Shown here in pieces: positions 32,733 to 37,499 of a stretch of DNA of 38,952 nucleotides. Made by a program: the position numbers and the translations under genes. Source of the stretch: a virus; the UHGV virus genome UHGV-0201407; one strand, given 5' to 3'. The notes beneath the pieces are model-generated. The model was not told where the DNA came from, did not search any database, and saw only the letters and a program-made list of their open reading frames with translations. Position 1 is the first letter of the stretch, and each line of letters opens with the position of its first letter.

Positions 32733-32761
32733 TTGACGGCGGTCGCGGTATGTTGTAAAAA
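32733..32761 (+). promoter_or_regulatory. sigma70-type promoter for the rightward operon
   Basis: TTGACG-17-TAAAAA preceded by an A-tract UP-like element. Confidence 0.55.
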
Positions 32762-32958
32762 TGGATTTGTAAGGACGGGAACGGACTTACAAGCCACCCC
32801 GCAGACCGGCGGCTAAACGGGCAGGGGAACGGAACGCTGAAAAAGCGAGGTTTTAGCCTACGGTTGCGCGGTCGGCTTCGGTCGGTGTCGGCAAGGGAAA
32901 AAATAAAACGCTGGCGGTCGCCGGATTGGGTGAAAATCCCGTGATGTCAAAAATTTTG

Positions 32959-32983
32959 AAAGGGGCGAGAGATTGCCCCTTTT
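32959..32983 (+). terminator. leader terminator/attenuator
   Basis: AAAGGGGC-N8-GCCCCTTTT just before the first rightward gene. Confidence 0.6.
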
Positions 32984-33009
32984 ATAATTTCTGGCAAAGG
33001 AGAAAGAAA

Positions 33010-33270
33010 ATGAAAGAAAGAATGTTGAAAATAAAAATCGCCGATTTGCCGACTACGGGCAACCTCTGCGGTCTGATCCGTCAGCTGGCGGGCGTGAGCG
33101 GTCAAAAATACCGCGACGCGCATCGTTGCCGCGCTAATGCGGCGGAGGGCGACAACGTCGATCTGAACCCCGCGAATCGTCATATTGATGAACAACGCGC
33201 GGCGGTGGAAGCCTTCCGCGCGAAGTACGGTCAAATGACCGTCGGCGAATATTTGGCTCTTAAAAATTAA
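33010..33270 (+). CDS. hypothetical protein
   Basis: AAGGAG RBS; 86 aa. Confidence 0.7.
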   Translation: MKERMLKIKIADLPTTGNLCGLIRQLAGVSGQKYRDAHRCRANAAEGDNVDLNPANRHIDEQRAAVEAFRAKYGQMTVGEYLALKN

Positions 33271-33622: not shown

Positions 33623-33777
33623 AAGAAATGTTTTTTGCTGGTCTATGCGGCGTCTTGTTGACGTTCGCGCTGGTGTTCAGCGTCGACGCCGAAGTCGCCC
33701 GCATTGATCGGGCGAACGGAATCGCGCCGCGTGATTGCGTGTTTAAAACGAACTGCTGGAAAGGGGATTTGACATGA
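33619..33777 (+). CDS. small signal/TM protein (52 aa, not in ORF track)
   Basis: MKEMFFAGLCGVLLTFALVFSVDA...; ATGA overlaps at both ends. Confidence 0.6.
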   Translation: MKEMFFAGLCGVLLTFALVFSVDAEVARIDRANGIAPRDCVFKTNCWKGDLT

Positions 33778-34442
33778 CGGCAGAAAAAAAAGCGATTGAC
33801 GTTCTGGGCGAAATCCAGAGCGAATTAAAAGCCCCGAAAGGGCAATACAACAAATTCGGGGGATACGCCTACCGTTCCTGCGAGGACATTTTGGAAGCGG
33901 TCAAACCGCTTTTGAAGAAAGCGGGGGCGGCGTTGACGATTTCCGATTCGGTCAATTTGTGCGGGGATCGTGTTTATGTCGGGGCGGTCGTTCGTTTTCA
34001 TTTCGGCGGAGAAGTGATCGAAACACACGCTTTCGCCCGTGAACCCTTGGAAAAGAAAGGAATGGATTCCAGTCAAATCACGGGCGCGGCGTCGTCATAC
34101 GCGCGAAAATATGCCTTGAACGGTATGTTCTGCATCGACGATACCAAAGACGCCGATGCGACAAACACGGGCGACTTTCAGAAAAAACAAACCGCCCCCG
34201 CCCCTGCCGCAAAACCCGCGCAAACGGCAAAAAAAGAACCGACTTTGAAAGAGCGGTTCGATCGTTGCAAAAATTATTTTGCCCAAGCACCCGACGGATC
34301 GATTTTGATTAACGCCCCCGCGAACGAAAAACTGGTTAAAGGCGCGAACGAAATCATCAGCGAGCTGAAACAGGCGGGCAGAACGAACGAAGCCGTCGAG
34401 TTGGAAAAGCTGATCAATTCGAAGTTGAAAAAGGGAGAATGA
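33774..34442 (+). CDS. erf: ERF family single-strand annealing protein
   Basis: IQSELKAPKGQYNKFG.Y.YRSCEDILEAVKPLL, QITGAASSYARKYAL.G.F.IDD..D.D. Confidence 0.93.
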   Translation: MTAEKKAIDVLGEIQSELKAPKGQYNKFGGYAYRSCEDILEAVKPLLKKAGAALTISDSVNLCGDRVYVGAVVRFHFGGEVIETHAFAREPLEKKGMDSSQITGAASSYARKYALNGMFCIDDTKDADATNTGDFQKKQTAPAPAAKPAQTAKKEPTLKERFDRCKNYFAQAPDGSILINAPANEKLVKGANEIISELKQAGRTNEAVELEKLINSKLKKGE

Positions 34443-34443
34443 A

Positions 34444-34938
34444 ATGGCGTATATGGAAAAGGACGTGGCGGACTTATTGTCCGCAATGGACGCGAGCTTT
34501 GACGAGGAAACGGGCGACTGGCGCGAATGCGACGAACTGGCGTTTCAGCAGTTGGCTGACGAATGCGTCCGTCCGAAGTTGGAACGGATGCAGAAAGCCC
34601 GCGTTGCGCTGGCGGGCGATATCGCCGCCGTTGATGCCGAAATCAAACGGCTTCAAGAAAGAAAGAAATCGTTGCAGAGAAACGACGACCGCTTGGCGAA
34701 TCGTATTCTTTTCGGCTTAAACGCCGTCTATGACGGAAAGCTGAAAACGCCGTTGTTCACGTTTTCCCGCCGCCTGTCGGAGCGTCTGATCGTTGACGAC
34801 GAAAAAGCCGTTCCGCCCGAATTTTTGAAAACGAAAACCGAGGTCGACAAGGCGGCATTGAAAAAGCACATCAAGGAAACGGGCGAAATTTTCAACGGCG
34901 TTCACTTTGAAGAAACGGAAAGTCTTTCCGTCCGATGA
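34444..34938 (+). CDS. siphovirus Gp157 family protein
   Basis: Coiled coil AEIKRLQERKK, KTPLFTFS.R, VPPEF..VDK..LK. Confidence 0.85.
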   Translation: MAYMEKDVADLLSAMDASFDEETGDWRECDELAFQQLADECVRPKLERMQKARVALAGDIAAVDAEIKRLQERKKSLQRNDDRLANRILFGLNAVYDGKLKTPLFTFSRRLSERLIVDDEKAVPPEFLKTKTEVDKAALKKHIKETGEIFNGVHFEETESLSVR

Positions 34939-35360
34939 GAATTTATTTTCATCAGAACGCCACCGCCGCCGATGTTGAACAGCGGCTTTTAAAGCCGTTT
35001 TACGCAATGTTGACGGCGGCGAAAAACGGCGTGGACGTGGAATTGTCAGAACATAAACACCGACGTTCAACGGCGCAGAACGCTTTTTACTGGTCGAATA
35101 TGACCGATGTTGCGGTCGTTTTGAACGAAGCGGGTTGCGGATACGGGGAATACAGAATCCCGTACACGGCGGAAGTTGTCCACGAAATCAATAAAACGAT
35201 TTTCGGGCAAAAAACGACAACAAAAATGGCGGTTGCGGAATTTTCCGCATATATGACCGCCGTCTTTGATTTTTGGATTGAACGGACAAGAGGTTTTTTC
35301 GTTCCGAAAGAATCGGCGGAAAGCTACCTAGACCGTTCCGGATATTTGAAAGGAGAATAA
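34935..35360 (+). CDS. NinB-like recombination protein
   Basis: RRSTAQNAFYW, TTKM...EFS.Y. Confidence 0.65.
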   Translation: MRIYFHQNATAADVEQRLLKPFYAMLTAAKNGVDVELSEHKHRRSTAQNAFYWSNMTDVAVVLNEAGCGYGEYRIPYTAEVVHEINKTIFGQKTTTKMAVAEFSAYMTAVFDFWIERTRGFFVPKESAESYLDRSGYLKGE

Positions 35361-35363
35361 AAA

Positions 35364-35831
35364 ATGGCGGGATTAAATCGCGCGATGATTATCGGGAACG
35401 TCGGAAACGCGCCCGAAATCAGGACGGCGGCGGACGGACGCAAAGTCGCCACTTTTTCGCTGGCGACGTCCGAGTCTTGGAAAGACAAGGAAACGGGCGA
35501 AAAGAAAGAAGCGACAGATTGGCACCGCGTCGTTTGTTTCAATCAGAACCTTTGCGGCGTGATTGAACAATACGTCAAGAAAGGATCAAAGTTGTACGTC
35601 GAAGGTCAGATGAAGACTCGGAAATGGACGGACAACAGCGGCATTGAACGCTATACGACCGAAGTCGTCTTGTCGGCGTTCCGCGGCGAAATTCAGTTAC
35701 TGGACAGCAAAGGTAACGGTGGATCGTATCCGCCTGCTGCGGAAGCGTCCGACTATGACGACAAAACGACGGGCGCGGCATACGCTCCGTCTAATGCGCC
35801 GGGATTTGACGACCAAGTCCCTTTTGATTGA
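35364..35831 (+). CDS. ssb: single-stranded DNA-binding protein
   Basis: LNRAMIIGNVG, WH.VV.F, KGSKLYVEG...TRKW, acidic DDQVPF tail. Confidence 0.97.
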   Translation: MAGLNRAMIIGNVGNAPEIRTAADGRKVATFSLATSESWKDKETGEKKEATDWHRVVCFNQNLCGVIEQYVKKGSKLYVEGQMKTRKWTDNSGIERYTTEVVLSAFRGEIQLLDSKGNGGSYPPAAEASDYDDKTTGAAYAPSNAPGFDDQVPFD

Positions 35832-35878
35832 AGCCGTATAGGCGCGGCTTAAAATAAAGCCTTGATAATTTGATAAAA

Positions 35879-35907
35879 GATGATATACCTGTAAAAGGTA
35901 TATCATC
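35879..35907. repeat. perfect 12-bp inverted repeat (operator or minus-strand terminator)
   Basis: GATGATATACCT-gtaaa-AGGTATATCATC; followed by TTTTAT on minus strand. Confidence 0.7.
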
Positions 35908-36027
35908 GAGCGAGGGACTTATGGCAAGTCCTTAAAGGTAAGGAAAATCCTAATTATAAAACGGGTTATTGTGCAAATCGTTTAAATCAATCGTTCGCCG
36001 CCGCAGAACGGGCAAGGTTTAAGAGGT

Positions 36028-36120
36028 TCAGTCATCGCAACCGCACCCTTTCTTTTTTTTGTTCTTAACAACCGCAATCACACCGCCGACAAGGGCGGAC
36101 AAACCCAAAAATTCAAGCAT
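36028..36120 (-). CDS. 30-aa hydrophobic peptide (type I toxin-like)
   Basis: MLEFLGLSALVGGVIAVVKNKKKKGCGCDD*; extended -10 TGTTATAAA 6 nt upstream of ATG. Confidence 0.5.
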   Translation of the reverse strand: MLEFLGLSALVGGVIAVVKNKKKKGCGCDD

Positions 36121-36203
36121 TTTCTTTTTATAACACATGCATAATTTTACGCATGTTCCAGACGGAGAACATACTCGAAAAAAGAATTCAGTTAATCTCA
36201 AAA

Positions 36204-36609
36204 ACAGGGTGTTTGCGGAATAAAAGAATACGCAAAACGGGCTTCGTAACCCGCAGTGAGTCGCCCTGTCTAACAGGTTGTCGCTGAATATGGGGAATAA
36301 AGCGACGTTGCCCGTGTGAAATTGGAAATAAGCACGGGATAACAAAATAGTACCGACCTGCCCTTTTGGACGGCGTCGAATATCAAATAAGACGCGACCG
36401 CCCGACAAGCCGAGAAACGAGTCGGGGCAACGGTTGAATGTTGTACAAGCGTCCTACATTGGGGATTTTGCCGAATATCGGGCGAATAAGGCAAAGCATT
36501 TTGGGAAGTGCAAACATGAAATCCCCGCCATTTTAAACGCCGATTTCCGCCGAATAAGCAAAAGCGAATAAGCGGAAAGCCGTCAGAAGCTTGTTGAGAG
36601 TCGGCGTTT
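36204..36609 (+). ncRNA. putative structured RNA: five tandem three-way-junction modules with GAAUA double loops
   Basis: Five closing stems, each enclosing a hairpin with GAATA-Nx-(G)AATA(A) loop plus a second hairpin; G-U pairs favour the + strand. Confidence 0.65.
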
Positions 36610-36630: not shown

Positions 36631-36789
36631 ATGGCGGAAAAAGACGAAAAGGACGCGGAAATCGCCCGTTTGCGCGACGCGTTAGATACGATCGTCGGAT
36701 TGTTTGAAATTAACGGCGGTTTTTGGGCGGTTGCTGAAAAAATGCACGAAACGGCGAAACAAGCATTGAAGAAAGGAAAAGAAGAATGA
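36631..36789 (+). CDS. hypothetical protein (52 aa, not in ORF track)
   Basis: MAEKDEKDAEIARLRDAL...KEE*; AAGGGA RBS; ATGA overlap with the next gene. Confidence 0.65.
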   Translation: MAEKDEKDAEIARLRDALDTIVGLFEINGGFWAVAEKMHETAKQALKKGKEE

Positions 36790-37499
36790 AACATTTTAAA
36801 CTTAGAACCGATTTAACGGCAGAATTTTTCGGAAAAACACTTTTTCGCATTGAAGCGACGCGCGATATCGAAAAATTAGGTGTCAAAAAAGGCGAATTGG
36901 GCGGCTTTGTTGAAAGCGAAGACAATTTGTCCGGCAACGCGTGGGTGTACGGCGACGCGCGGGTATCCGGCGACGCGCAGGTGTACGGCGACGCGCAGGT
37001 GTACGGCGACGCGCAGGTGTACGGCGACGCGCGGGTGTACGGCGACGCGCGGGTATCCGGCAACGCGCAGGTGTACGGCGACGCGCGGGTGTACGGCGAC
37101 GCGCGGGTGTACGGCGACGCGTGGGTGTCCGGCAACGCGCAGGTGTACGGCGACGCGCAGGTGTACGGCGACGCGCGGGTGTACGGCGACGCGTGGGTGT
37201 CCGGCGACGCGCGGGTGTACGGCGACGCGCAGGTGTACGGCGACGCGCGGGTGTACGGCGATAAAATCGAAAAAGAAAACGATTTGATCAATATCACTTC
37301 CAACGTCGGATCGTACAATATCACGATTACGCCGAAGCATATCAAAATTGGGTGTCAGTACCATTCAAAAGTTGCGTGGTTTAATTTTTCCGACAATGAA
37401 ATTGAAAAAATGGACGGCGAAACCGCCGTTAAATGGTGGAAAACGTGGAAGCCCCTTTTGAAGGCGATTTGCGACGGTTTGAAAGAAAAAAACGAATGA
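36786..37499 (+). CDS. hexapeptide-repeat (left-handed beta-helix) protein
   Basis: GKTLFRIEA, GELGGFVESE.NLS, ~18x [WRQ]V[YS]G[DN]A, C-term IKIGCQ.H. Confidence 0.88.
   Translation: MKHFKLRTDLTAEFFGKTLFRIEATRDIEKLGVKKGELGGFVESEDNLSGNAWVYGDARVSGDAQVYGDAQVYGDAQVYGDARVYGDARVSGNAQVYGDARVYGDARVYGDAWVSGNAQVYGDAQVYGDARVYGDAWVSGDARVYGDAQVYGDARVYGDKIEKENDLINITSNVGSYNITITPKHIKIGCQYHSKVAWFNFSDNEIEKMDGETAVKWWKTWKPLLKAICDGLKEKNE
36930..37262 (+). repeat. 18-bp coding tandem repeat (~18 copies)
   Basis: Consensus CGGGTGTACGGCGACGCG with variation at few positions. Confidence 0.95.

Follow-up and report, generated by a model that had tools for sequence, protein, structure and literature searches.

A tandem array of five RNA three-way junctions behind the ssb gene of a myophage, with probable kinship to sRNA-Xcc1 and C4-type antisense RNAs

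The RNAs closest to the element described here are those of the sRNA-Xcc1 family (Rfam RF02221) and the C4-type antisense RNAs. The founder of the sRNA-Xcc1 family is described as an 88-nt RNA, identified by Northern and RACE (PMC2996969). In Xylella the family is listed next to C4 and isrK and treated as an Hfq-type sRNA (PMC12189769), and it is also reported upstream of symE and ORF6N (bioRxiv 2025.06.18.660453; 2020.03.17.996009). So far sRNA-Xcc1 has been regarded as an sRNA that acts in trans and is linked to virulence, its targets being predictions only. An a1/a'/a2 control logic is known for C4 (PMC5320573) and for the P4 CI RNA (PMC4825925). We found no literature ascribing C4-type action to sRNA-Xcc1, and an earlier remark to that effect may stand in Chen 2011 or in the supplement of PMC5737381.

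Five three-way junctions in the early operon

The window, by which we mean the whole stretch of 38,952 nt that was analysed, carries at 36204-36609 on the plus strand five consecutive three-way junctions (M1 to M5). The phage is a myophage of ~39 kb, and the junctions come shortly after ssb in its early operon. The array is real and conserved. The features referred to throughout are as follows, with E values from the covariance model R2 introduced below.

33774..35360, plus strand: erf, gam-like and ninB genes of the early operon, 5' of the array (PHROGs 155, 253 and 72)
35364..35831, plus strand: ssb gene (PHROG 44); in relatives an array or a single module lies directly behind it
35824..36198, no strand assigned: variable insert outside the element, skipped in the X1, X2 and X4 contigs
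36204-36269, plus strand: module M1 (E 1.6e-4)
36242-36249, plus strand: loop of the M1 third hairpin CGGG-CTTCGTAA-CCCG, a target(a1)-type hairpin
36274-36360, plus strand: module M2 (E 0.11; fold z -4.3)
36368-36454, plus strand: module M3 (GAATA/AAATAA), third arm extended (E 0.0045); a related module occurs in genome G004
36461-36526, plus strand: module M4 (E 3.9e-4)
36500-36507, plus strand: 8-nt loop of M4, TTTGGGAA, unchanged although its stem is rewritten
36535-36609, plus strand: module M5 (E 0.032), followed by a T-run
36581-36588, plus strand: loop of the M5 third hairpin, CGTCAGAA, compared with host leader loops
36631..36789, plus strand: 52-aa ORF 3' of the array, without Pfam match

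The modules are 66-87 nt long and stand head to tail with spacers of 4-8 nt. All five closing stems and GAATA hairpins reported in a previous sequence-only reading are present in the sequence at the sites given there, the second number of each pair being the start of the 3' strand and not the end of the module. RNAfold returned the five expected multibranched domains, the minimum-energy fold of M4 pairing part of its loop differently, and the modules folded better than shuffled controls, with z values between -2.1 and -4.3 on the plus strand. Folding energy is no guide to the strand (z = -2.39 on plus, -2.61 on minus); we keep the plus strand proposed before because it is that of the operon and of the homologous leaders described below. 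The pattern GAATAN{1,12}RAATA had seven matches in the window where 1.9 were expected; five of the seven lie inside the 400 nt of the array itself, and none of 100 shuffles gave seven matches.

The motif itself has to be described somewhat differently than at first. Exact GAATA occurs nine times, not about ten, the second motif of M3 being AAATA, and an extra GAAAT pair of M2 is absent from the related phage L001. What had been taken for double GAAUA loops is better seen as GAAUA and GAAUAA facing each other in a symmetric internal loop than as paired hairpin loops, because several homologs close both motifs with a helix; M5, with GAATAA-helix-GAATAA, is built in this way, like the host leaders. 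The UAA/GAN motif is a cross-strand A-stack with long-range contacts (PMC10484739), and by its geometry GAAUA/GAAUAA may be a doubled loop of that type, which would dock on a helix. The loop of the third hairpin, the one previously called variable, is likely the specificity element of the modules, and GAAUA is likely not.

A boxB or nut site is a GNRNA pentaloop closing a short stem. The comparison of GAAUA with such a pentaloop fails, as GAAUA makes up one side of an internal loop or of a loop of 13-19 nt. We consider it highly unlikely that the array is an antitermination element (boxB/put-like) or a single-stranded DNA element linked to ssb, the latter having been suggested from the adjacency of this gene. 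The array does lie behind ssb with a terminator-like site nearby, and three of the five modules beat shuffles when folded as DNA; M3 and M4 as DNA are no better than shuffles, the two modules of G004 do not adjoin ssb, and the homologs are promoter-leader-terminator units whose founder is an 88-nt RNA (PMC2996969). Four sequencing runs whose RNA label is uncertain covered the whole phage thinly and behaved like DNA.

Other parts of the window were also inspected. Near 35994-36057 the variable insert contains part of a Lar-like (CPFCG) gene in inverted orientation, recognised by short Lar-gene matches, and in run X1 the same piece lies 3' of the array in the opposite orientation. At the head of the early operon (32735-33010) a promoter-like site precedes a structured-looking leader of ~230 nt and a terminator-like hairpin (32961-32984), and this region matched neither Rfam nor R2. 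A YdcK beta-solenoid repeat protein is encoded at 36786-37499, its repeat number being variable and the protein much longer in L001. A serine recombinase, invertase- or integrase-like, lies at 1376-2290, and together with the prophage relatives it suggests that the phage is temperate. The search of the 63 window ORFs against PHROGs gave no reverse transcriptase.

Relatives of the array and kinship to sRNA-Xcc1

The array was compared with those of its relatives. L001 has six modules, the extra one between M2 and M3, and its stems are rewritten yet still paired, which bears out the internal covariation claimed from the window. Its counterpart of the M1 loop is ATTCGTAA, and the loop on the long third arm of M2 is not conserved there. 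The array normally begins right behind ssb, since the X1, X2 and X4 contigs lack 35824-36198. Among the 14 differences of X1 across the array are a compensatory change at 36468/36494 and alterations in both strands of the third stem of M4, the loop remaining intact. M4 is also the module type that stands alone after ssb in L327 and in prophages of genomes G022 and G153, which share 79% DNA identity with part of 33774..35360. G004 has an M4-like module with a different loop. Copy number is thus 1 (L327, G022 and G153), 2 (G004), 5 (window) or 6 (L001). The junction strands of M1-M4 differ among the window, L001, L327 and X1.

BLAST of the array region against phage and plasmid collections returned short chance or Lar matches only. 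A two-module pattern matched at least 121 loci in 34 of the 64 parts of IMG/VR, and within that portion only the contig of L001 had two or more stem-closed motifs. The stem variant CGC/GCG gave 34 loci, those of L229 and of the L001 contig being genuine, and none of the 69 loci with GCG/CGC or GCT/AGC was convincing. The M4-loop pattern was drowned in chance matches (no R2 module in 80 of 118 loci), and none of the three loci matching an M1-like module was confirmed.

The module occurs widely. One stem-specific pattern, allowing linkers of 2-12 nt, matched 75 IMG/VR loci, 29 of them with a 4-nt linker, and 67 loci in genomes, 36 of which lie in genomes that we took to be gut Alphaproteobacteria or relatives of them; many of these carry the label Ca. 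Enterousia. The same junction could be parsed in 29 of 33 loci chosen by eye from the viral and genome matches. These modules lie between small early genes with no neighbour gene in common, and no cis target was found near 18 of them. Among the 75 IMG/VR loci (L124-L198), the 29 modules with a 4-nt linker stand singly, have UGCC/GGCA stems and lie between small early genes of many unrelated phages, with neither target nor terminator beside them.

Across ~29 single modules of unrelated phages, nothing is constant except P2 and the fold of the junction. This constancy, at loci that lack targets and terminators, could mean that nothing but the P1-P2 arm matters, as a processing or stability signal (an RNase P-type cut) or as a protein site, the copies cutting or protecting the early mRNA or titrating a host factor that handles leaders. 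The range of copy number from 1 to 6 fits this explanation, as does the cutting of C4 by RNase P at the 5' end of P1 (PMC5320573). It leaves unexplained the target-type loops described below and the M4 loop, which stays the same on three stems that differ; nor was a partner protein identified, and we regard this explanation as fairly unlikely.

Analysis of the window with Rfam gave no match, neither at gathering nor at E <= 10. The RF02221 model found no match at its gathering score (53) in the window modules, G001 or G004, RF03163 matched none of these three, and the modules gave no direct match to the C4 model. The view that the array is unrelated to known families is not supported, as the RF02221 matches on the host side and the model R2 point to a distant sRNA-Xcc1/C4-type fold. 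The RF02221 consensus has the P2 arm aAUACAAuA-helix-GAAua, and its three-way junction with an A-rich AUA...GAAUA P2 loop is present in the window modules. A chromosomal module (L279) matches RF02221 with 34.9 bits (E = 1.5e-4), in a genome (G002) with 21 such matches, one of them above gathering, and L452, with GAAUA...GAAUAA in P2, scores 56 and hence above the threshold.

In the case of our own covariance models, R1 was built from 25 chromosomal copies only and placed four window modules within its top six matches, at E values of only 0.6-1.8. R2 was built from 29 sequences with the window and its relatives left out, and ranked the five modules 1-5 in the window (E = 1.6e-4 to 0.11); its phage members had been found through GAAUA words, so that part of the R2 score arises by construction. 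Covarying pairs occur in both alignments, the second of which (A6) was fitted to the model. Taking these results together, the modules very probably have an sRNA-Xcc1/C4-type three-way junction fold, and we read each as a GAAUA/GAAUAA variant of the sRNA-Xcc1 scaffold. Formally the array belongs to neither RF02221 nor the C4 system, because the model score fell short and cis targets are absent.

Leader RNAs of the likely host group and the loops of the array

The order of G022 is the likely host group, because two genomes there carry prophages 79% identical to the phage over erf-ninB. RF02221 matched 25 of 28 genomes of this order (123 matches) and none of 14 controls, and R2 matched 20 of the 28. 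The chromosomal units share one order of parts: a promoter-like site, two hairpins, a hairpin competing with P1, then the module, and lastly a terminator that overlaps with the P1 end. The 8-nt loop of the second hairpin was complementary over at least 6 nt to the junction strand of its own unit in 42 of 46 cases; of 2070 crossed pairs 102 were so, and 10,000 permutations gave a maximum of 11. The 46 units were parsed from 56 loci and hold 37 different loop strings, and they are related, not independent. In APSE-1 the same pairing of loop and junction strand links C4 and the isrK/c4-a1b1 hairpin. In 17 of 33 leaders of the inferred host order the code appears again immediately 5' of the start codon, against 34 of 602 crossed pairs, these leaders having been parsed from 120 loci and belonging mostly to one subfamily. 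Inspection of leaders of this order by eye also shows a second pairing, with the third arm. The host-side leader RNAs thus work like C4, because their a1/a'/a2 logic is that of C4 and P4 CI.

Genes 3' of the leaders encode mostly predicted exported proteins or BRO-N-like proteins, and one of four downstream genes tested was an outer-membrane beta-barrel. The 1-Mb genome G002 (L279, L300-L319, L400) has at least 39 such leaders among 42 candidates scored; these and the Ca. Enterousia leaders L236-L298 consist of promoter, a1 hairpins, competing hairpin, module and terminator, carry diverse codes and lie mostly 5' of signal-peptide proteins or small HTH genes. At L246:3250-4360, L261 and L264, three to five complete leader units are stacked at ~240-nt spacing 5' of a small gene, each with its own promoter-like site and terminator and with differing codes. 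Leaders L404 and L409 (G111) precede genes starting with GRSMVEML, which we take to be a pilin-like motif. In related prophages a C4-type cassette lies 5' of a BRO-N-like gene (L327:5730-5960, G022:C5, G153:C66), its P2 being a tetraloop in L327 and GAAUA in G153 while the a1 loop is similar.

The array lacks the promoter, target hairpin and overlapping terminator of the host-side units, and an upstream a1 complementary to the junction strand with an a2 at a controlled gene was found neither in the window nor in its relatives. What it does have is loops of the target type. M1, M4 and M5 carry 8-nt NNU-NNN-RA loops on stems of at least 4 bp, the consensus of the target hairpins, and M2 and M3 do not. 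Such loops occur in three of the five modules; among single modules the figure is two of 29, and among hairpins of the window 76 of 1829. The comparison is post hoc, its pattern having been noticed only after the host loops had been seen. The M5 loop, CGUCAGAA, is the commonest target loop of the inferred host order (19 of 33 parsed leaders); CGTCAGAA was read by eye as the target loop in 11 of 30 R2 matches, and as a hairpin loop of the window it occurs once, in M5. GCCGT before this loop also starts the host third stem, so only about five letters of the match are independent and the first letters of the loop may be inherited from that stem. The M1 loop is one letter off the second host code (11 of 33 leaders). 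Host leaders with the exact M1 or M4 code were not found, pattern counts being at or below the reversed control; no leader was among the 30 of 41 matches to these codes that were checked, and the pattern used to list codes was too noisy, its sole M4-code candidate not being a leader. M4 is the most widely kept module despite this lack of a host leader with its code.

Our leading guess, and a tentative one, is that the array consists of decoys titrating C4-like repressor RNAs of the host, a decoy role having been among those proposed earlier. The array RNA would be transcribed together with the erf-gam-ninB-ssb operon and may be cut into units of 66-87 nt, as RNase P does for C4. The M5 loop would then pair with the UUUCUGA strand of host RNAs and the M1 loop, with one mismatch, with UUUCGA, the kissing-loop decoys capturing the mature repressor RNAs. 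Repression might in this way be lifted from host genes for exported proteins, or from antirepressor cassettes of resident prophages sharing the code.

The junction strands allow the opposite polarity, in which the modules are orphan C4-like antisense guides whose junction strands, and third-arm loops, bind target hairpins of the host or of rival prophages in trans and silence genes. The junction strand acts so in every complete cassette, L246 uses a loop code to which the M5 strand is complementary, and by eye an A near the end of the strand, the partner of the invariant U of targets, is present in many single modules and in the window. This reading seems unlikely to us: the M1-M4 junction strands vary among relatives, the 18 single modules are without cis targets, and complementarity to target hairpins of the window and its relatives was at chance (one of 21 own pairs against nine of 199 crossed).

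The same loops could also bind tRNA anticodon loops, the A-rich P2 loop steadying the duplex in a T-box-like manner, and the array would then sense, shield or sequester tRNAs. Matching by hand to tRNAs of the host order, the M4 loop pairs over 7 of 7 nt with the loop of tRNA-Gly(CCC), M5 over 6 nt with tRNA-Gln(CUG), and M1 over 6 nt, one of them G-U, with tRNA-Arg(ACG). These complementarities speak for such a role, which also accounts for M4, the module whose code was found in no host leader. As the U-NNN-AA consensus is almost self-complementary, many such loops match some tRNA, by our estimate over half of them. The host target loops include UGA and UAG triplets, which have no cognate tRNA, and GAAUA lies outside the T-loop pattern, which is NGNRA. 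Overall we hold tRNA binding to be unlikely.

Returning to decoys, a broader picture is possible rather than likely, in which gut Alphaproteobacteria address dozens of surface-protein and regulator genes by C4-type switches with a 6-nt code, and the phage array jams chosen codes through loops that can be swapped. New here, in our view, are the head-to-tail orphan array, the mimicry of targets that it probably shows, and the interpretation of sRNA-Xcc1 as a C4-type RNA. This family gains a concrete and testable mechanism, namely antisense control of the C4 type in which a 6-nt code covaries. Switches of this kind are greatly expanded in small gut alphaproteobacterial genomes, mostly 5' of exported-protein genes and including serial stacks. 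A phage RNA array may reprogram such switches of the host; if true, this would be RNA-against-RNA counter-regulation in an expandable multiplex, programmable through the swap of one loop, and the modular loop code would offer a ready set of orthogonal RNA regulators.

Comparison with described RNA arrays and C4-type RNAs

Several described systems were compared with the array. A CRISPR array is rejected, in keeping with the sequence-only reading: self-comparison of the region revealed no repeat shared by the modules, identical repeats separated by unique spacers are absent, and no Rfam repeat matched. A T-box riboswitch has no Rfam match, the likeness being the loop-anticodon complementarity read by hand. 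TIGR arrays, which consist of Box C/D-like 36-nt units with a Tas gene, differ in unit size and motifs. The ncRNA arrays of UG27 reverse transcriptases are likewise prophage arrays conserved in structure, diverse in sequence and with units gained and lost (bioRxiv 10.64898/2026.09.22.753630). Their units, however, are ~149-167 nt long beside a reverse transcriptase, and GAAUA is absent from the preprint text available to us, whereas the window has units of 66-87 nt and no reverse transcriptase among its 63 ORFs; without an adjacent reverse transcriptase or ~150-nt units this assignment was rejected. STAXI is also a set of tandem RNA repeats near ssb, sometimes near c4 RNAs, but its units are pseudoknots with UUCG loops (PMC2864571, Weinberg 2010), and the window has no Rfam match. 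The Group 1 C4-like sRNAs of Acinetobacter have many chromosomal copies per genome with variable a' loops, as do the gut Alphaproteobacteria here, but they are dispersed and of the tetraloop type and form no phage tandem array (PMC5320573).

The closest likeness is with sRNA-Xcc1 and C4. Like the window modules, sRNA-Xcc1 has a three-way junction with a third hairpin and a short junction strand; in both, P1 stacks on an A-rich P2 loop whose 5' side contains AUA and whose 3' side contains GAAUA. The P2 of the window is shortened or symmetric (GAAUA/GAAUAA) and its modules stay below any model match, and the five copies in Xylella lie ~380 nt apart (PMC12189769), whereas the spacers here measure 4-8 nt. 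The same junction topology is found in the group of the C4 antisense RNA of P1/P7 (RF01695), with its c4-a1b1 (RF03163) and isrK (RF01394) elements, and the P4 CI RNA. C4 differs in having a tetraloop P2, where the array has a GAAUA-type P2 and no a1 or a2 partner; the host-side homologs share with C4 the a1/a', b1/b' and a2 code logic, and the target-type loops of the array sit on the arm that carries b' in C4.
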